Source: Promethearchaeia archaeon (GTDB lineage Archaea > Asgardarchaeota > Lokiarchaeia > Sigyniarchaeales > SOKP01). Taken from it: DNA of 32,000 bases. Shown piece after piece: positions 7,777 to 30,949 of the stretch. Positions within the stretch are counted from its first letter, which is position 1. Each line of letters begins with the position of its first letter. The position numbers and the translations under genes are program-made. The DNA lies in assembly GCA_046497275.1 (NCBI GenBank), contig JAWOFX010000186.1, positions 1 to 32,000 of the forward strand, in the 5' to 3' direction. Under the pieces are notes generated by a model. It searched no databases. It was given only the letters and a program-made list of their open reading frames with translations, and was not told the origin of the DNA.

Positions 7777-9867
7777 TTATGCCCCCTCTATTGTTTTATT
7801 TGCATTTAAAAAATCAAGAGTTAATTTTTGTCCGTTATATTCTATTATGGTTTGCATACTCCCAAATGTCTGATTGCAGTATGGACTTTCAAATCGCTCA
7901 TATGGTCCTAGATCGATTATTTGATCCTCCACCTTCATTTCCCCATCCCAACTTACCCGAATTTTTCCTTTAGAGGGGGAATTGTAAATGATTTCATACC
8001 CTATAGATTTTTTTGAGATTCCAATATTTGCATTCAGAATTTTGGCTATAAAATCTTCATAGGAATCGAAAGCATCATCATCAACACTTCCTAATTCAAC
8101 TATCCATGCATTTTTCTTTCCTTCCGCTCTTAGTTCATAATTGCTTTTCCACTCTGTTGGGTTATTTGAATATAAAGCTACGAAGCTGTCATTTCGCCGT
8201 CCAAATACCCAATTGTTTGATTTATTCCATTCATTAAAAGCCCAACGTGGGAAATATGCGTGTGTATATGATTTCTCTCCTAAAAATTCTTGAACTAATT
8301 CTAATATAAGCGATTGAGCGCGTCGGTCATATTGGATAATACCCACATTTTCATATAAAGTCGCACGGGGTTTCCAACCACTCGTGAATTTTTGATCACT
8401 AGCACTAAGGGCACTTGGAGAGCTAGTAAATATAGTAGCATTTCCGTCCAAGCAAGCTTGCCAGATAAGTTCTTGAAGACCATTCATTCCTTTTTGATGA
8501 TCCTGGACCCCAGACAATTGGTAATAGGGAGTTTTATATGTATAGGTGTTAGCAGTCTCGAGGGACACACCCTGAGTGATATCCTTTATTATATGACTAA
8601 AATCTTTCAGAGAAGTTCCATAAATAGTGGCTCCAATATCAAATAAATCAACAAAAGCTTCATCGTTAAATATCAATGCGGGATCTAACTCATAAGTATT
8701 CATAATTCTTAAAGAAGATTCTAATACTGGAGGAGCTGCAGGAGCAGACATTGGCCACCAAAACATAAGATCTGATTCGGTTTCATATCCAAATCCATAA
8801 TTAGGACCCTCTGAGATATCTATATTATTCCTTGATTTATGAATATGGGTATTTGTATTTGCGGTCGCATTTGCTATATCTTCTAATATTTTAGGAGTGA
8901 AATAATTCCCTGTTGCCATAAATACGGCAGCCCCGTTTTCTCCAGTAGTTATATCATCTGATCCAATACCAAGCATCAACCAAGCTGGTTCTGCAGTTGA
9001 CTCTTTTTCGGGAGGATTAGATGCGGAAGTACCTACTTGTTTTTCATCCTCAGTTCTTCCGTGGGCAGTGGCATAAAAACCTTTATAATAATTATTTGCA
9101 AAATCAAATCCGATTAAATCAATTAGCATTTCTGCTTTTTTTTGAATGGTAGTATTCTGAGCGAAATCCACCAAATTTAATAAAGCAGTTAAATCAAGGC
9201 GATAATAAATATTTGAATGCCACTCTGCAAACCCAAACTTAGCTCTCCAATCAAGCCAACGGTTCACTAAAGGAAGAGCATGTTCGATATGTTGGGATCC
9301 ATTCCATCCTGAATTAGGAAATATGGTATTAGGAAATAATTGACCAGCTAATAATTCCGCCGTATGGAATAAGATCATATGATTTTCAGTCCAAAAGATC
9401 ATCTCATCTGGACCTGATTCTGTAAACCAATACTTAAAATTTAAAATGGCATCTTTTATGCTATCATTCAAGCCAGAGGGGATATTATATTTGCCAAGAT
9501 CTAAATACATCATTCTTAGTAATGTATTCATATCAAAATCCGAACAATCTTCTCTGATATTGATTTTATCGAGGGATTGGTTGATCCTTGCTTCATTATA
9601 TTCTGTCTCATTCAGATATACTTTGGCACATTGAGCATTAAATCCATCGCTATTATTTGCTAAATCCAAATACATATCTTTACGTTCCGTAAAATTTAAA
9701 TCAGAGAGATAATACGAGGATGGATTCGCAAAATCATCAAGATCAGTATTTATCTCCCCTTCTTTAATTATACCAGACGGTTTTGGAATCAAAGTAGGTA
9801 TAAATATTATAATTGGCATAAGCACTAATATTACTGCGATAATAAGAAGTTGAATGTATTTTTTCAT
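7777..9867 (-). CDS. Membrane-anchored extracellular protein, possibly alginate-lyase/heparinase-like (alpha-toroid + beta-sandwich), 696 aa
   Basis: Single N-terminal TM helix, many NxS/T sequons, WTENH and GFAEWHSNIYY segments. ATG 9867 is preferred over TTG 9882 because GGTG lies upstream. Fold assignment is tentative. Confidence 0.45.
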   Translation of the reverse strand: MKKYIQLLIIAVILVLMPIIIFIPTLIPKPSGIIKEGEINTDLDDFANPSSYYLSDLNFTERKDMYLDLANNSDGFNAQCAKVYLNETEYNEARINQSLDKINIREDCSDFDMNTLLRMMYLDLGKYNIPSGLNDSIKDAILNFKYWFTESGPDEMIFWTENHMILFHTAELLAGQLFPNTIFPNSGWNGSQHIEHALPLVNRWLDWRAKFGFAEWHSNIYYRLDLTALLNLVDFAQNTTIQKKAEMLIDLIGFDFANNYYKGFYATAHGRTEDEKQVGTSASNPPEKESTAEPAWLMLGIGSDDITTGENGAAVFMATGNYFTPKILEDIANATANTNTHIHKSRNNIDISEGPNYGFGYETESDLMFWWPMSAPAAPPVLESSLRIMNTYELDPALIFNDEAFVDLFDIGATIYGTSLKDFSHIIKDITQGVSLETANTYTYKTPYYQLSGVQDHQKGMNGLQELIWQACLDGNATIFTSSPSALSASDQKFTSGWKPRATLYENVGIIQYDRRAQSLILELVQEFLGEKSYTHAYFPRWAFNEWNKSNNWVFGRRNDSFVALYSNNPTEWKSNYELRAEGKKNAWIVELGSVDDDAFDSYEDFIAKILNANIGISKKSIGYEIIYNSPSKGKIRVSWDGEMKVEDQIIDLGPYERFESPYCNQTFGSMQTIIEYNGQKLTLDFLNANKTIEGA

Positions 9868-10143
9868 CTTTTTTAACACCAAATTTATTAGATTTTTTAT
9901 TAGATTTTGAGTTTTTTAATAAAAAATTAAAATTATTGTTGTTAATCATTATTTTTGATACAGAACCTAATAAATTTTTTTTTAATGTTTAATAATCCAA
10001 ATAAATTTTGACAGAACTTTTGGTTGTACTTTATTTTCTAAAAATTTTTAGCTCATTAAAATTACTTATAAGGAAGAGATCTTTATAAAACCTGATTTAA
10101 ACATTAATACAATGAAAAATAAATATAAAAAAAGATAAAAAAA

Positions 10144-11292
10144 CTACGTTTTCTCTAATTCCATCTCTCTAATTGCCTTACCACTTCTAAATGGGGTATC
10201 TTCAACCGATTCTCCTGCGCGATACTTAAATTCCTTTTGAAACTGCTCATTTAGAGACTGAAAAATTAGCGAAAGTGGTATATTCATAGGACAATTATTC
10301 GCACAATTTCCACATTCTACACATCGATCAGCAACATGGGCAATGCGCGTTAACTGATAACTTACATTATCAATATTTTTTTCCTTCCGCTTTTTCTGAA
10401 GGATACAATCGACGCAATAACATACTGGACAGCCCCTAATACACATTCCGCACATAGTGCATTTCTGAAGCTGTTCCAGTTTTTCCTTTTGAGATAATTT
10501 ATTCCATTCTTCGAGATCCTTCGCTCGTTTTTCTTCTGCAGTCTTAAGAATCTCAGCCATTTTGTCTTCATGTGCTTTTTTAATATCACTTGGTAGTTTT
10601 TCAGCCTTAATTCCTGATTTATCGATTAATTCGCCTGCAGCATCACTATGAACTTTTAAGATAATATTTTCATCTTCAATAGGAATTCCAATATCACTAA
10701 TAGAAATGTCTGCGATTATAGGTTGCTTTCGAATACATCTCGAGCAATTATCAGCAATTTCGATTCCTACTTGTTTTGTCTTTCCATCATCAAGTAAAAA
10801 TAATAATCCATCATCCGTGATTTTCTCCTTTACGATTTTTGTGGTATCAAGATCCTTCTCGCTTCGAAGTTCCCGTGAGACATTTAATGTCATTCCGCGA
10901 TCTTCAATTCCAATGATAAATAAGTTATCTAAATTCACTTGTTTTATTTTGCTCAATTCTATTAATGCTCTTGTATCGCAAGGTCGAGCTATTAAAGCGA
11001 TTTTCTCATTTTTCGCTCCATCTGCGCTTGCATGTAAGAATTTAGAGGCAGAATCCGTTCGGGCGTATCCATAGGTAATTAAATTAGACACGGGAAAACT
11101 TTCAATCTCCTCGGGTTTTTCCCATAATTTTGGAGAGATTGAAAATCGATCTACTTCACCGGATTTTTTACTTACTTTTACTTCTGCGCCGATTATTTTA
11201 TCAACCATTCCCTCTTTCAATAAGGTCTTTAACAATGTAGGGAAGTCTTTTTCTTTTATGAGATATTCTGCTTGTGTTTCCACAGCTTTCAA
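10144..11292 (-). CDS. FdhB/FrhB-family (F420-binding beta-subunit-like) protein with C-terminal 2x[4Fe-4S]
   Basis: ARPCDTRALIEL, CSRC, CTMCGMCIRGCPVCYCVDC and RCVECGNCANNCP; TTG start. Confidence 0.75.
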   Translation of the reverse strand: MKAVETQAEYLIKEKDFPTLLKTLLKEGMVDKIIGAEVKVSKKSGEVDRFSISPKLWEKPEEIESFPVSNLITYGYARTDSASKFLHASADGAKNEKIALIARPCDTRALIELSKIKQVNLDNLFIIGIEDRGMTLNVSRELRSEKDLDTTKIVKEKITDDGLLFLLDDGKTKQVGIEIADNCSRCIRKQPIIADISISDIGIPIEDENIILKVHSDAAGELIDKSGIKAEKLPSDIKKAHEDKMAEILKTAEEKRAKDLEEWNKLSQKEKLEQLQKCTMCGMCIRGCPVCYCVDCILQKKRKEKNIDNVSYQLTRIAHVADRCVECGNCANNCPMNIPLSLIFQSLNEQFQKEFKYRAGESVEDTPFRSGKAIREMELEKT

Positions 11293-11430
11293 CTCGTAAT
11301 CTTTATAATTTTATAATTTTGAAAAATAATTTATGGTGAGAAACATAAATTCTTAGTTCATATACGTTTCGTTTCTATTATTTTCCAATTTGATTTTTTA
11401 TTTTTTAATTTTATTAAATACTTTATGTGT

Positions 11431-11502
11431 TTAAATGGGGCTTCCATTTCTTCAACAAGATTCTCATTTTTTCAACCTTGTCTCATTAGGACACACATTT
11501 AA
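11431..11502 (-). promoter_or_regulatory. SECIS element, eukaryote-like (AUGA / apical A-run / GA)
   Basis: Minus-strand RNA: UUAAAUG..CCUA-AUGA-GACAAGGUU-GAAAAAAUGAG-AAUCUUGUU-GA-AGAAAUGG..CAUUUAA. Contains a 9-bp upper stem (two G.U), an A6 loop, a tandem G.A core (11483-11486 / 11452-11453) and a 7-bp lower helix. Starts 2 nt after the stop of a UGA-containing gene. Confidence 0.9.
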
Positions 11503-11504
11503 TT

Positions 11505-11924
11505 TTATGAGGAGCTTTCTTTTAAAGGATTTCCACCCAATCCTTTAATAGTATTATAGAATTCTGTGGCTACTTCTTTAAACCTTGCGCCTTCAGCAGA
11601 ACTGCAAAATTCCATTCTAAGTCTCTCAGGTGCGATTCCTGCTGAATTTAACACATCTTTTAGATATTCTACGCTACGATACGCAAATTTATTTCCTGTC
11701 TCGTAATCACACTCTCCTGGATGTCAGCCGACGATTAATACCCCATCAGAACCCCTTCCGAATGCGCGCATAACAAGATCTGCTCCAACTCGTCCGGTAC
11801 ATGGAACAATAATTATTCTATATGCTGTTGGATATTGGGCGCGAATTGTGCCTGCCATATCAGCTCCTCCGTATCCTCATTTTCTACAACAAAATGCGAT
11901 TATCTTAATTCCATTATTTGTCAT
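11505..11924 (-). CDS. mvhD: Selenocysteine-containing MvhD/VhuD ([2Fe-2S] hydrogenase delta subunit), 139 aa, 2 Sec
   Basis: Absent from the ORF track. IAFCCRK-U-GYGGADMAG (TGA 11877-11879, codon 16), CTGRV, GVLIVG-U-HPGECDY (TGA 11724-11726, codon 67), ERLRMEFCSSAEG; ends TAA at 11505-11507. Confidence 0.95.
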
Positions 11925-11931
11925 TTTATTT

Positions 11932-11936
11932 ACCTC
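11932..11936 (-). promoter_or_regulatory. Shine-Dalgarno GAGGT for mvhD in the 13-nt hdrA-mvhD gap
   Basis: TAA-AGAGGTAAATAAA-ATG on the minus strand. Confidence 0.7.
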
Positions 11937-11937
11937 T

Positions 11938-13896
11938 TTACTCTGCAATAGGTAGTAATGCATCAATAAATGCATCATATTGATTATCTTTATAATGTGC
12001 TAATTCTATAGCTTTTGAAGGACACAAGGATTCACAAATTCCGCATCCTCTACAGCTAATGATATCCACTTCTATTAAGTTTTTTCCATTGATTGAAATC
12101 GCACCGTAAGGACATGCCTCAACACATTTATAACATTTCGCACATCGTTCATCATTTGGTTGAGCTCGAATTAGCTCTATTATGTATTCCTCGTTTTTCA
12201 TCGGGATACTTGCTTCAGAGGCTGCTCCTTTTGCTTGACTTACCGTAAGGTCTATTGATTTTTGGGCTTGACAAGAACCCGCAATATAGATTCCCGGAGT
12301 TTTTGTTGATATGGGATCTAATCGTGGATGTGCTTCTTTTAGAAAGCCATCCGGAGTCTTTTCCAAATTCATCACTTTAGCAATTTCATCTGTACCTTTA
12401 GATGGAAGTGATGCTGAAGAGAGTATCACCATATCAAATTCTTTTTCAATGATTGTATCTGTTCCCACCGGTTCTAATTTAACTATGAGATTTTTTGTTT
12501 CGGGATCTTCTTGTATATCTCCCACCATTCCTTTTACAAATAATATGCCTTGATTTCGTGCCCGCCGATAATATTCTTCATACATCTTACCACCAGCACG
12601 AATATCTATATAGCATACCATTATCTCAGAATCGGGATACTCTGATTTGATAAGCTTGGAATTTTTTATCGAAAGATTGCAGCACACCACGCTACAATAT
12701 TCATGTGTTTTTAAACTTCTCGATCCCACGCAATTAATGAAGAGTATCCTTTTAGGTCGTTCTCCATCAGATGGTCGTTTTAAATGTCCTAGTGTTGGTC
12801 CGTTTGGTGCGATTATTCGTTCCAATTGTACTTGTGTTATAACGTTATCATATATTCCATACCCATAATCATCTCCTTGGTAAAGATCCCAACCAGTTGC
12901 AATTATTATTGTTCCTACTTCTAACTCAACAATTTCATCTTGTTGACTAAAATCAATCGATTCATTATCACAAGCGTCTACACATGCAAAACATTCTACA
13001 CATGAATCTCGTTCAATGTTAGAAATTGCAGGAACTGCTTGCGCAAATGCAATATCAATACATTTTCGAGCAGAAAGGTTCTCGTCAAAATAGTTTGGCA
13101 CATATATAGGACATACATCAGTACAAGATCCGCACCCAGTTCAAAGTGTTTCATTAACATATCGCGCTTTGCGTTTTACTTTCACGTTAAAATTCCCAAT
13201 ATATCCATCTACATCTACAACTTCACTATATGATAAAATTTCGACGTTTTTATTACGCTCAACTTCTAGCATTTTAGGTCCCAAGATTCAGATACTGCAA
13301 TCATCAGTTGGAAATGTTCTATCAAGTTGAGCCATTCTTCCTCCTATGGTAGTCTCTTTCTCCACTAAGTACACTTTATATCCCTCATTTGCTAAATCTA
13401 GTGCAGCATTTATTCCCCCAATTCCACCACCGATTACTAGAGCCTCTGGTTTTACGGATACTTTTTTCGTTGGAATATCTTCTAATAACCTAGACCTTCC
13501 AATACCTGCTTTAACTAATTCAATTGCTTTCTCTGTTGCCTCCTCTCGTACATCGGGATCTTGATGAACATAAGAACATTGCTCTCTTATATTAACAAAT
13601 TCAAGATGTCTTGGTGGCAAACCTGCTTCTTTCAAAATATCCATAAATACTGGTTCATGAGTAAGAGGAGTTCAAGCTGCTAAAACTATTCTATCAAAAC
13701 CTTTTTCTGCGATCTGTTCTTTCATGAATTCTGCGCCACCAGACGTACACATGTTTAGATATTCGTATGCGTTTACATTCTCTTCTTTATCAATCTCTTC
13801 GACAATCTTCGGTACATCGAGTATTCCTGCCACGTTTACACCTCAGCGACAGATAAAAGCTCCTACGTTTTCCTTGGTCTGTTCATCATCAGACAT
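11938..13896 (-). CDS. hdrA: Selenocysteine-containing heterodisulfide reductase subunit A, 652 aa, 4 Sec
   Basis: One frame joins track ORFs 13288-13644 and 11938-13101 plus upstream sequence. FICR-U-GVNVAG (TGA 13843-13845, codon 18), LAA-U-TPLTHEP (13672-13674, codon 75), FPTDDCSI-U-ILGPKM (13288-13290, codon 203), ETL-U-TGCGSCTDVCP (13141-13143, codon 252). Also GGGIGG FAD motif, CVGSR, YCSVVCC and C-terminal 2x[4Fe-4S]. Confidence 0.95.
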
Positions 13897-13997
13897 TTTT
13901 CTCACTCTTAGAAAGTAATACCTCCTAATATCTTGAGATTTACTTGTTTTTGATTTATAATTATTATTAGTATTTATTTTAATTGGTAAAATTAAGA

Positions 13998-14020
13998 TTT
14001 GTTCTTAAAATTTGTTCTTA
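13998..14020. repeat. 10-bp direct repeat TTTGTTCTTA (13-bp period) upstream of Sec-hdrA
   Basis: Copies at 13998-14007 and 14011-14020. Confidence 0.6.
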
Positions 14021-14178
14021 TCAAGAATCATTGAATTCTTTAAAATTATCGATATTTCATAATCATCAATCCAGTAAGATAAAGTCTGAATTTTTTGGCT
14101 TTATTTAACTTGAGGATCTTTTTCTGAATTTTTGATCTATTCCATATTTTTTTAATTTGACCTTTCCTATAAAGTATT

Positions 14179-14502
14179 ATGGAAATTATTGCGATGGGAG
14201 AATTACGTGCCTTTTTGAAGGATCAACTCTCAAATTGGAAAGATCCGGTCATCTTCATTAGTTCAGATTTTATCCCTGGATGTCCGAAATGTAATAGTAA
14301 TGCAACTGTTTATTATATTAAATTAACTGAAAGAATATCGATTCCGAATGAACAGAATGTAATAAAAGCAGAGAAGCATAAATTTCCAATTGATATTTAT
14401 GTGAAATATCCTTTCATGAAGGGAATACCTCAGAAAATAGTTATAGGGACAAGAGATTCGAGGGGTGGTTTAGAAATGATTCTAAGACGTGTGATTGATT
14501 GA
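14179..14502 (+). CDS. Hypothetical protein (107 aa) with a single CPKC
   Basis: ORF with ATG start, divergent from hdrA; no family recognised. Confidence 0.5.
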   Translation: MEIIAMGELRAFLKDQLSNWKDPVIFISSDFIPGCPKCNSNATVYYIKLTERISIPNEQNVIKAEKHKFPIDIYVKYPFMKGIPQKIVIGTRDSRGGLEMILRRVID

Positions 14503-14531
14503 ATCTATAGACACAAATATTCAATTAAGTT

Positions 14532-27353: not shown

Positions 27354-27818
27354 TTATTCCTTTTTTAGTTCAATCTTTCCAAATTTTTTGGGAAAAGATG
27401 AGGGACCTAAATTTGAAATAATCTCATTAAATTCCCGTATTAATTCAGCAAATTGTTTTCCTTCACTAGCTGAAATCCATTCTAATCGAAATCTATTAGG
27501 ATTAATTCCTATTTTTTTCAATAAAGTTTTCATATGATTCATTCTTTCTCTTGCTAATTCATTACCACTAATATAATGGCAATCACCGATATGACATCCT
27601 GTAACTAAAACACCATCTATACCATTTTTAAATGCAGTTAAAATAAATGAGGGTTCTACCCTTCCTGAACACATCACTCGTACTATTCTGATACTTGGAG
27701 GATATTGAAATCTTGAAACTCCCGCTAAGTCTGCTCCGGCATAAGAACACCAGTTACAGCAGAAAACTAAAATTTCTGGAAGAAAGGCTTCTTTCTCTTT
27801 AATTTTTGTTTTACTCAT
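27354..27818 (-). CDS. mvhD: MvhD, all-cysteine form
   Basis: FCCNWCSYAGADLAG, MCSGRV, GCHIGDCHY, WISASEG. Confidence 0.95.
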   Translation of the reverse strand: MSKTKIKEKEAFLPEILVFCCNWCSYAGADLAGVSRFQYPPSIRIVRVMCSGRVEPSFILTAFKNGIDGVLVTGCHIGDCHYISGNELARERMNHMKTLLKKIGINPNRFRLEWISASEGKQFAELIREFNEIISNLGPSSFPKKFGKIELKKE

Positions 27819-27847
27819 TATTAATTTAATCCCTCAAATATTGGATA

Positions 27848-30800
27848 TTATTCTAAATTAATGCCTGGTAATAATTCAATCTGTTTTCTAATCTGAAAAT
27901 TACTGAAATGTCTCTGATTAATAGCCCCTAATGGACATTCAGCCGCACATGCCCCGCATCCTTTACAGAGTGCTTTAATTACATGTGCTTTTTTCTCATT
28001 GACAGTATAAAGACCAATCTGTTTAGTAATTTCTAACATTTCTATCGCATTGTAAGGACATATCTCTGCACATGCACCACATCCTATACATTTCTCCTCA
28101 TTCACATAACAAGTTATCCCCTCCGTCTCGACTTCTCCTTTAACCATTAAAGAAGCGGCTCTCCCGGCAGCTCCATATGCTTGTGTTATTGCTTCATCTA
28201 TCCATTTTGGCCAGTGTGCTCCGCCACATAAGAAAATCCCATCAGTTGCAAAATCAACTGGACGAAGTTTAACATGAGCCTCCAAAAAGAATCCATCTTT
28301 AGTGGTAGGGACTTTAAGCATTTTAGCGAGTTCATTAGTTCCCCTCCCCGGAATTTCAGGGGTTGCAAGAACTAATAGGTCTGTATCATATTCAACTTCA
28401 CAATTCGCACCAAGATTATTATAATTTATGTGAAATGCTCCATTATTCTCTGAAATCGTTATTTCTTTGATGGATTTATATCTTTCAAAAGAAACTTTTT
28501 TCCTTAAATCACGCCATAATCGCTCAGCATTCAAGTCAGAAAATTGTAATTCTCTATATAGAATATGGATATGTGCTTCTGGATTGATATCCAAGAGTTT
28601 TTCAATATTTTTAAGCGCTACTTTACAACAAATATTACTACAATAGGTTTTTATAGTCTCACCTTGATTAAATTCATTCCGTCTTTGATCCACACATAAT
28701 ATAATTGTAGCATCATTAAAACCTGGTACTTTTGTATCTTGCGTAGCTTCTAATTCATTTTGAGTGAAAACTTTATTTGGATGCTTTTTAATAGCATCTT
28801 TCCATCTATCTGTATCTGATTGACTAGTTCCCGTAGCCACAATGATAGTTCCAACTATGAAATCAAAAGTGTCTGATTCATTTTGGACATTTTGGGTTTT
28901 AATTTCATAATTTCCTACGTATCCGGTTATATCTGTGATTATAGAGCTCGTTAATAAATGAACATTTGATTTTGTCTTTAAATCATTAATATCCTTCAAA
29001 ATATCTTGTTTATGCATAGGAATATCATATAAATCAATGAATTCTAAAGAATTCCCTCCTAAACTTGGCTTTTTCTCAACAAGATATAATTCAAATCCTT
29101 GATTAGCAAGATTATGAGCTGCCACTATACCAGCAATTCCGCCACCTATTATCATAGCTGATTTTTCAACCTTAACTTTGATTTTTTCAAGAGGTTGAAG
29201 ATTAACGACTTTAGCCAAATACATTCTGATTAAGTCGCAAGCTTTTTTAGTCGCTTTTTCAGGCTCATTATGGTGTACCCAAGAATCTTGATCTCTAATA
29301 TTAACCAATTCAAATAAAAATGGATTTAATCCAGCTTCTTTTAAAGTATTTCTAAATAATGGTTCATGAGTTCTTGGAGTACATGATGCTACCATAAATC
29401 TATTTAATTTATATTCTTTAATCATTTCCTTGATTCTCTCTTGAGAATCCGAACTGCATGAATACATATTTTCTTCGGCATGTGTTACATAAGGAAGCTT
29501 AGAAACATAATCAACCACCGCTGAAGTATCAACAACCCCCGCGATATTTATTCCACATTGGCATACAAGAACACCTACTCTTGGTTCATCATCTATACCT
29601 ACAGGAATTTCTGGGGGATAAACAACCTCTTTTATATTATTAAATCTAACGGGATTGAGTTTTTCACTTATTTTGGCGGCGCAAGCACTTCCCTCAGCAA
29701 CCGCTACAGGTATATCTTTTGGTTTCCTTGAATAACCAGTAAAAAATATGTTATTTTCTTCTGATTTAATCAATCCCTCTTCATTAATAAAACCAAATTC
29801 ATTATAGTCAACATTAATGCAATCTAATAAATCATAATAAGAATCATTTGGAAATAAAGCACTTGCTAATACAACCATATCATATTCATCATTTTCAACT
29901 TTATTTTTATCAATATCTTCATAAAATAAAGTCAATTTACCATTTTGCGGATTCTCCTTAACCAAGGAAACTCTACCATTAACATAATTTACTCCGTATT
30001 CCTCTTTACTTTTTACTATAAATTCATAAAAATTCTTACCTTTTGCTCTTATCTCTGTATTGAATATAGCACATTCAGTATCTGGAGCATGTTCTTTAGC
30101 CACGATTGCTTGTTTAGCAGAGGACATACAACAAATTGAAGAACAATATTTTTTACAATCTGGATGATGGAAATCTCGCGATCCAACACATTGTAGAAAA
30201 GCAATCTTATGAGGATGTTTTTTATCATCGAAACATATTAATTCTCCACCTGTTGGCCCATTAGCAGATAATAATCTTTCAAATTGCATACTTGAAAGAA
30301 CATTTGGATTTGAACCCGCCAGTAGAGAATAAAACTCTGGGTACTGCTGTTCATAACCAGTGGCTATAACGATCGCTCCAACATTTATATCAATTTCTTT
30401 GGGTTTTTGAGTGAAATCAATCGCGTCTGCTTTACACCCTGTAGCACATAGTTTACAAATTCCATGATTCAAATAAAGACATTTGTTTTCATCAATTAAA
30501 TAGATTGGAGGAACTGAAGAGGGAAATGAGATATGAGCAGCACTACGAGTAGTTAAGTGAGCATCAAATTCACTTGGAATTCCTTTTACGGGACAAATTG
30601 TAGCACAATCTCCACAACCCTTACATTTTGTCTCATCAACATACCTTGGTTTTCGAATTACTTTCACATTATAATTTCCAGCCGTTCCATTAATTTTTTC
30701 TACATGTGAATAGGTTAGTAGCTCAATATTAGGATTTCTATATACTTCCACCATTTTTGGAGCTAAAATACACAAAGAACAATCTAACGTAGGAAATGTC

Positions 30801-30949
30801 TTATCTAATTGTGCCATTGTACCTCCAATTGTAGGCTTTTTTTCTACTAAGTATACTTTAAACCCTAATTCAGTTAGATCTAAAGAAGTTTGGATACCCG
30901 CTATACCAGCACCTATCACTAGAACGGAACTTGATAATGCTTCTGTCAT
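27848..30949 (-). CDS. hdrA: Large two-module HdrA-family flavoprotein, all-cysteine form (1033 aa)
   Basis: Two FAD motifs (GAGIAG, GGGIAG), FPTLDCSLC, CKGCGDCATICP, CVGSR, internal VCQCGINIAG / ASCTPRTHEP, C-terminal 2x[4Fe-4S]. Confidence 0.93.
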   Translation of the reverse strand: MTEALSSSVLVIGAGIAGIQTSLDLTELGFKVYLVEKKPTIGGTMAQLDKTFPTLDCSLCILAPKMVEVYRNPNIELLTYSHVEKINGTAGNYNVKVIRKPRYVDETKCKGCGDCATICPVKGIPSEFDAHLTTRSAAHISFPSSVPPIYLIDENKCLYLNHGICKLCATGCKADAIDFTQKPKEIDINVGAIVIATGYEQQYPEFYSLLAGSNPNVLSSMQFERLLSANGPTGGELICFDDKKHPHKIAFLQCVGSRDFHHPDCKKYCSSICCMSSAKQAIVAKEHAPDTECAIFNTEIRAKGKNFYEFIVKSKEEYGVNYVNGRVSLVKENPQNGKLTLFYEDIDKNKVENDEYDMVVLASALFPNDSYYDLLDCINVDYNEFGFINEEGLIKSEENNIFFTGYSRKPKDIPVAVAEGSACAAKISEKLNPVRFNNIKEVVYPPEIPVGIDDEPRVGVLVCQCGINIAGVVDTSAVVDYVSKLPYVTHAEENMYSCSSDSQERIKEMIKEYKLNRFMVASCTPRTHEPLFRNTLKEAGLNPFLFELVNIRDQDSWVHHNEPEKATKKACDLIRMYLAKVVNLQPLEKIKVKVEKSAMIIGGGIAGIVAAHNLANQGFELYLVEKKPSLGGNSLEFIDLYDIPMHKQDILKDINDLKTKSNVHLLTSSIITDITGYVGNYEIKTQNVQNESDTFDFIVGTIIVATGTSQSDTDRWKDAIKKHPNKVFTQNELEATQDTKVPGFNDATIILCVDQRRNEFNQGETIKTYCSNICCKVALKNIEKLLDINPEAHIHILYRELQFSDLNAERLWRDLRKKVSFERYKSIKEITISENNGAFHINYNNLGANCEVEYDTDLLVLATPEIPGRGTNELAKMLKVPTTKDGFFLEAHVKLRPVDFATDGIFLCGGAHWPKWIDEAITQAYGAAGRAASLMVKGEVETEGITCYVNEEKCIGCGACAEICPYNAIEMLEITKQIGLYTVNEKKAHVIKALCKGCGACAAECPLGAINQRHFSNFQIRKQIELLPGINLE

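Follow-up and report, generated by a model that had tools for sequence, protein, structure and literature searches.

Organization of the hdrA–mvhD locus

We analysed a stretch of 32,000 nucleotides from the genome of a Promethearchaeia archaeon (GenBank assembly GCA_046497275.1, contig JAWOFX010000186.1, positions 1 to 32,000; hereafter the window). The genome amounts to 3.85 Mb in 188 contigs. On its minus strand the window carries two adjacent genes, hdrA and mvhD (also named vhuD), which together contain six in-frame UGA codons, and a single selenocysteine insertion sequence (SECIS) behind the second gene (table 1). A preliminary description of this DNA had proposed that the one SECIS acts on all six codons, across the boundary between the two cistrons. 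Our analysis makes this probable and places the locus within an arrangement already published for the lineage.

The product of hdrA combines, according to Pfam, flavin adenine dinucleotide (FAD)/pyridine-nucleotide oxidoreductase and 4Fe-4S ferredoxin domains, and its best match among solved structures is HdrA of PDB entry 5ODC, over the whole length (E 1.9e-205). We compared the locus with 12 close hdrA orthologs, whose products are 71–82% identical over the full length and for which mvhD could be aligned in 11. We also used 80 related loci, collected with MvhD and all from metagenome-assembled genomes (MAGs) of Asgard archaea (labelled Promethearchaeota, Hodarchaeota, Hermodarchaeota and similar). 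Codon counts at the 5' end of hdrA refer to 73 more distant related loci with a complete 5' end, and counts for metagenome relatives to 55 loci from a protein-guided scan of contigs.

Table 1. Features of the hdrA–mvhD locus. Positions are those of the window; distances are from each UGA codon to the SECIS core.
Feature	Positions	Strand	Details
hdrA	13896-11938	minus	heterodisulfide-reductase subunit A type flavo-iron-sulfur protein; ATG 13896, TAA 11940-11938; 652 aa
Start-codon hairpin of hdrA	13894-13877	minus	GUCUG-loop-CAGAC, predicted by folding; contains the G of the start codon
UGA (presumed selenocysteine) codon 18 of hdrA	13845-13843	minus	2359 nt upstream
UGA (presumed selenocysteine) codon 75 of hdrA	13674-13672	minus	2188 nt upstream
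UGA (presumed selenocysteine) codon 203 of hdrA	13290-13288	minus	1804 nt upstream
UGA (presumed selenocysteine) codon 252 of hdrA	13143-13141	minus	1657 nt upstream
Intercistronic spacer	11937-11925	minus	13 nt, AGAGGTAAATAAA; carries the AGAGGT ribosome-binding site
mvhD/vhuD	11924-11505	minus	FlpD family (Pfam FlpD, E 1e-45); ATG 11924, TAA 11507-11505; 139 aa
UGA (presumed selenocysteine) codon 16 of mvhD	11879-11877	minus	393 nt upstream
UGA (presumed selenocysteine) codon 67 of mvhD	11726-11724	minus	240 nt upstream
Extended SECIS	11498-11425	minus	predicted by folding; lower helix 11498-11492/11431-11425 (AUGUGU/ACACAU) closes the junction
lokiSECIS (type I eukaryote-like SECIS)	11494-11444	minus	AUGA 11486-11483, GA 11453-11452
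3' mini-hairpin in the SECIS junction	11447-11444, 11438-11435	minus	predicted by folding; AUGG, loop of 5-6 nt, CCAU

The preliminary description had placed the two genes 13 nt apart, with the ribosome-binding site inside the gap, and both the coordinates and the AGAGGT within the spacer agree with this. The hdrA gene has no 3' untranslated region (UTR) of its own. The junction is conserved: an AGAGG directly after the hdrA stop, followed by 7–10 nt and the start codon, recurs in 10 of the 12 orthologs, and the two genes are separated by 12–19 nt or overlap in 76 of the 80 related loci (no start was placed in the other four). The hdrA stop, TAA in the window, is TAA in 46 and TAG in 34 of these 80 relatives, and TGA in none.

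A single SECIS behind mvhD

The element behind mvhD has a perfect 9-bp stem (GACAAGGUU/AAUCUUGUU, without mismatches) and an 11-nt apical loop (GAAAAAAUGAG), which is A-rich, with a run of A at its start and AG at its end. The AUGA lies 18 nt beyond the TAA of mvhD. A covariance model, R1, was trained on 61 distinct SECIS found behind mvhD in relatives, with the element of the window left out. The latter scored 62.6 bits (E 4.5e-13), and the elements of the relatives 39–77 bits. In the 61-sequence alignment (A1), the AUGA and GA columns are invariant. All 11 modelled pairs, including the 9 of the stem, show compensatory changes among the relatives, a covariation that has to be read knowing that the sequences were chosen by a pattern that required pairing. 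By its AUGA/GA core, its stem and loop, its R1 score and its position 3' of a UGA-bearing gene, the element is a member of this class of SECIS.

Folds suggest that the structure extends beyond this core, with a lower helix that closes the junction and a mini-hairpin on its 3' side. An alignment of 71 sequences (A2) shows 94.6% pairing in the lower helix and 99.6% in the mini-hairpin; covariation gives them weak support because both are nearly invariant in this ortholog group. This 3' extension does not appear in the part of the text of Mariotti et al. (2016) available to us and seems to be an addition to the published element. An analogous small hairpin lies a few nucleotides 3' of the GA in other SECIS of this genome (contigs C167, C109, C100, C24 and C171).

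The claim that there is no second SECIS in hdrA, in the spacer or in the leader was borne out by the covariance model. A scan of the whole window with R1, with filters off and coding sequences included, returned the element at 11494-11444 as its single match, everything else staying at or below 12 bits with E of at least 1. The best of the remaining matches in the operon (12380-12327, 11.2 bits, E 1.6) is due to chance: its AUGA is lost in 6 of the 12 orthologs, its stem is not kept and it shows no compensation. A loose AUGA-stem-GA pattern yields about 25 chance sites in the window, and the one within hdrA (12372-12335) is this same unconserved match. Among the relatives, 80 of 80 loci have one SECIS, always 10–20 nt behind mvhD. 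The SECIS families of Rfam gave no match at the gathering threshold in the window and none at E up to 10 over 10000-14400. Four chance matches to Rfam at E up to 10 were found in the latter interval; one of them, a 'RAGATH-1 hammerhead' at 13877-13919, corresponds to the hairpin at the hdrA start codon.

Searches for SECIS of other types were also negative. The strict GAA_A element of Euryarchaeota has no occurrence in 11293-14150. The one loose match to it (13430-13403) falls within the sequence that codes for the GGGIGG motif (GxGxxG) of the FAD domain, with 0.39 such matches expected by chance. For hairpins of the bacterial type, the 60-nt stretches that follow the UGA codons are no more stable when folded than shuffled sequences (z from -0.5 to +1.2). 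A consensus-fold scan of the codon alignments gave -4.4 kcal/mol for the best structure within the genes, against -13.5 for the SECIS; we compared energies alone, since z-scores were unstable, the shuffled alignments often having zero energy. This best hairpin (near 12698) is explained by the palindrome that the Cys codons of the peptide YCSVVCCN form. Synonymous-site conservation showed no peak within either gene except at the start and at the 3' end of hdrA.

The UGA codons and selenocysteine

The six TGA codons all align with TGA or Cys codons of relatives. Two of those in hdrA, at codons 18 and 203, recur as TGA in 12 of 12 orthologs and 73 of 73 related loci, and align with Cys13 and Cys197 of 5ODC, respectively. 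Codon 203 is the canonical selenocysteine (Sec) position of HdrA, and Cys197 of HdrA is a ligand of the N-terminal 4Fe-4S cluster of the partner protomer (PMC9012536). Since TGA-18 and TGA-203 are kept in every relative whose contig includes the 5' end of hdrA, they must be decoded. Codons 16 and 67 of mvhD are equally constant, with TGA in all 11 aligned orthologs and in 80 of 80 related loci. Other positions vary. For example, codon 75 of hdrA is TGA in 2 of the 12 orthologs and TGT or TGC in the others, and it is TGA in 8 of the 73 related loci and in 13 metagenome relatives. Codon 50 is TGA in 10 of the 73. We infer that the six in-frame UGA codons almost certainly encode Sec.

The genome contains the corresponding machinery. 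The Rfam model for tRNA-Sec has two identical-scoring matches in it (genome G000, contigs C33:11-129 and C165:63-181), both at contig ends; one adjoins SepSecS and the other a SelB-like elongation factor, and the assembly may have split a single locus here. The matches are each 119 nt long, and the model has 91 positions. A search of the genome with aragorn returned few tRNAs and no tRNA-Sec.

There are four Sec-type hdrA–mvhD pairs in the genome, with 4+2, 3+2, 3+2 and 2+2 TGA codons, as well as Cys-type copies, in which both TGA and SECIS are missing. One Cys-type pair lies in the window itself (27354-30949, minus strand), where an MvhD paralog (27354-27818) follows a fused HdrA-like protein of 1033 amino acids (27848-30949). 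It served as an internal control, and has neither in-frame TGA nor SECIS. This pair may be a selenium-independent counterpart.

A probable shared SECIS for two cistrons

We consider it likely that the single 3' SECIS serves both cistrons and all six UGA codons from one mRNA, whose UAA stops are not recoded. The logic is tight because hdrA has conserved TGA codons and no element of its own. On comparative grounds, the earlier proposal that one SECIS acts across the cistron boundary is supported by four different searches that give this as the sole SECIS-like element of the operon, by its layout in all 80 relatives, the constancy of TGA-18 and TGA-203, the missing 3' UTR of hdrA and its non-TGA stop.

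The process would most probably run as follows. The two genes would be co-transcribed on one mRNA that ends with the lokiSECIS. A factor presumably binds this element, which, presumably aided by tRNA-Sec and the Sec-specific elongation factor of archaea, would recode every in-frame UGA at a permissive distance. Its reach would cover the four UGA codons of hdrA at 1.66–2.36 kb, across the cistron boundary, and the two of mvhD at 0.24–0.39 kb; the range of 0.24 to 2.4 kb put forward in the preliminary description matches the 240 to 2359 nt that we computed. The UAA codons of hdrA and mvhD would be left as stops, and mvhD would be initiated at the conserved AGAGGT site directly after the first of them. 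Processive decoding, and coupling of the output to selenium supply, are plausible.

Several points weigh against this reading. To our knowledge, the function of a lokiSECIS has never been demonstrated experimentally. Our searches modelled known SECIS types, and a wholly new and weakly structured element could escape them. As a hairpin is conserved at the start codon of hdrA, the SECIS would not be the only RNA signal of this gene. With coupled transcription and translation, the leading ribosome would arrive at codon 18 well ahead of the synthesis of the SECIS. One lokiarchaeal SECIS was inactive in Methanococcus maripaludis (PMC11881835), and the longest distance between UGA and SECIS tested in archaea is 679 nt (PMC9622424), against up to 2359 nt here.

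A private UGA in a ferredoxin motif

The alternative that survives best is that fewer than six of the UGA codons are Sec. Codon 252 of hdrA, and perhaps codon 75, would then be recent changes from Cys to stop that are poorly read or truncate the protein, and the SECIS would serve four or five codons. We regard this as unlikely. In the inserted ferredoxin domain, codon 252 stands where the CxxCxxCxxxCP motif has its first Cys, and we take this position to be a ligand of the cluster, as is usual for this motif. The replacement of such a canonical ligand speaks for the alternative, and so does the distribution of the codon. It is TGT or TGC in the 11 other orthologs and in 54 of the 55 metagenome loci, and TGA in none of the 80 related genome loci. 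Among about 145 relatives, TGA-252 is thus limited to the window and to one near-identical contig.

A scan of metagenome contigs for the exact pattern around codon 252 found no match, while the protein-guided scan retrieved an independent contig (Ga0102944_1000090, hereafter L112) that is 97.6% identical to the window over 2.95 kb and has all four TGA codons of hdrA. In this gene the two sequences differ by 54 synonymous and 7 non-synonymous changes, of which 16 and 1, respectively, lie after codon 252. As the same TGA occurs in two non-identical sequences, with 16 synonymous changes and one non-synonymous change behind it, it is no artefact of assembly, and purifying selection still acts on the downstream frame. 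There are further points against a reduced number of Sec codons: recoding is expected for any in-frame UGA on an mRNA that bears a SECIS, TGA-75 occurs in many independent relatives, and the canonical Sec position, 203, also belongs to a cluster ligand (PMC9012536).

The comparison of the two contigs showed no change in the extended SECIS or in the spacer, and about 1% difference in mvhD, the leader and the 3' region. Within hdrA, 44 codons differ among the first 251 (13141-13896) and 17 among the remaining 400 (11938-13140). This uneven pattern suggests that the 5' third of the gene may have been exchanged by recombination.

If it is Sec, residue 252 would put selenium in a canonical ligand position of a ferredoxin motif. 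This would be unlike the positions in the part of Mariotti et al. (2016) available to us, where Sec replaces either a Cys outside cluster binding or one in the last 4Fe-4S motif, which has an extra Cys after it. Codon 252, private to the lineage of the window and of L112, lies outside those positions and appears to be an addition to them.

A hairpin at the start codon of hdrA

A second alternative is that the 3' SECIS acts on mvhD alone, and that the UGA codons of hdrA are recoded through another, unrecognized element, for example the hairpin predicted at its start codon. We find this improbable, more so than a reduced number of Sec codons, even if the hairpin itself has several properties of a signal. 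Synonymous sites preserve it in 66 of 74 related loci, most of which have a weak TTG start, and the first UGA follows about 35 nt downstream. Its codons are rare in this genome (CAG 20%, ACC 16%, TCT 24%) and invariant at the hairpin. Of the hdrA paralogs of the genome, it is present in three of the four Sec-type and in neither of the two Cys-type genes. Other evidence is hard to reconcile with a role in recoding. The hairpin lacks a kink-turn core and has no score with the SECIS model, its position upstream of the UGA codons is unlike that of any known recoding signal, and hdrA showed no further conserved structure. Moreover, eight relatives and the Sec-type paralog on contig C109 do without it: seven of these relatives and the paralog keep TGA-18 and TGA-203, and the eighth, whose 5' end is cut, keeps TGA-203. 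Because the hairpin is not SECIS-like and Sec-type genes exist without it, the reading in which the single SECIS serves both genes stands.

The hairpin could have another function. It is a possible second cis-element that might gate initiation, so that ribosomes would not arrive at UGA-18 before the distant SECIS is complete and loaded, and the 3' mini-hairpin of the SECIS may belong to the same mechanism. We looked by eye, in the four paralogs, for complementarity between the start-codon hairpin and the flanks of the SECIS, and found nothing consistent. Taken as one proposal, a second cis-element with a gating role, a part for the mini-hairpin in it and a cluster ligand at Sec-252 must be called a long shot. 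The start-codon hairpin is absent from the part of the text of Mariotti et al. (2016) available to us, and seems to be an addition of this work. Together with Sec-252 and the extended SECIS junction it is a modest lead.

Separate transcripts and genome-wide recoding

It is very improbable that hdrA and mvhD lie on separate transcripts, which would put the SECIS out of reach of hdrA in cis. A signal at the 3' end of hdrA could be taken in its favour: the synonymous sites of the last 20 codons are somewhat conserved (z 3.3) and include an A/T-rich run, as for a possible internal promoter. Such a promoter would, however, add a transcript of mvhD rather than end that of hdrA. The 13-nt spacer leaves no room for a terminator between the genes, and contains neither a T-run nor a terminator hairpin. 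The spacing, with the ribosome-binding site directly after the stop, is kept in nearly all relatives. Finally, hdrA on its own transcript would still need a SECIS, and no other exists. Genome-wide readthrough or reassignment of UGA, which would need no SECIS at all, is effectively refuted by stop usage: some Asgard lineages are reported to recode stop codons (in the part of PMC9723677 available to us), but TGA is an ordinary stop here, ending 217 of the 1555 frames of at least 300 codons in the genome and mvhD itself at 10 of the 80 related loci, the in-frame TGA codons of the locus stand only at Cys-aligned positions, and every Sec-type pair has a SECIS while the Cys-type pairs have none.

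Relation to known systems

The arrangement is known. As far as the available part of their text goes, Mariotti et al. (2016, Mol Biol Evol, PMC4989117) described HdrA–VhuD tandems in Lokiarchaeota with a very short spacer and multi-Sec HdrA. The one lokiSECIS (9-bp stem, 11-nt loop) lies only behind VhuD, UGA is never the stop of hdrA, and about 2 kb contain 'up to six UGA codons'. The locus of the window resembles these tandems, within the same portion of the text, in gene order, strand, short spacer, two Sec in VhuD and up to four in HdrA. With its junction, its sole SECIS behind vhuD and its non-UGA hdrA stop, it is an operon of this kind. Huang, Xiao and Zhang (2024, ISME J, PMC11227280) extended the arrangement to hundreds of Asgard MAGs and described type I eSECIS-like structures. 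The element of the window shares with these the AUGA_GA core, the upper stem and the unpaired run of A at the start of the apical loop, and differs from them in nothing material. Given this match to the published arrangement, the finding of a shared SECIS is correct and already known for the lineage (2016, 2024); the locus is a further instance and not a discovery.

The element can also be compared with the SECIS of other domains and lineages. It is like those of eukaryotes (SECIS_1 of Rfam; selenoprotein P) in its 3' position, its AUGA/GA core of the kink-turn type and its apical adenines, and in the reach over kilobases and to several UGA codons that it would have. It is unlike the eukaryotic SECIS_1 in its shorter stem, in having no match to the SECIS models of Rfam and in lying on a presumably polycistronic mRNA. 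In the available part of Mariotti et al. (PMC4989117), no SBP2 homologue is reported, and selenoprotein P is noted to have two SECIS. With the euryarchaeal elements of Methanococcales and Methanopyrus it shares the location in the 3' UTR near the stop and the presumed decoding of the two Sec of VhuD from one element. These elements have a GAA_A internal loop and G/C pairs in the upper stem, whereas no GAA_A element is present here. Methanogens have one SECIS for hdrA and another for vhuD (PMC11227280).

If the proposed reading is true, six stop codons for two proteins, up to 2.4 kb away, are recoded by a single RNA element at the 3' end of a polycistronic mRNA in a prokaryote. This would be the longest-range and most multi-site decoding of Sec known, and would bear on the origin of the eukaryotic SECIS system. 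The literature has pointed this out since 2016.

Sequences flanking the operon

Downstream of mvhD lies a FrhB/FdhB-like gene (10144-11292), itself followed by an open frame of 701 amino acids on the minus strand (7777-9882) that has no Pfam match at E 0.001. Upstream of hdrA there is a gap of 626 nt (13906-14531), which is very A/T-rich and contains no convincing gene. Some 30 nt ahead of the hdrA start it has a conserved GGAGG, and nearer to the start codon a site of the GGTG type.

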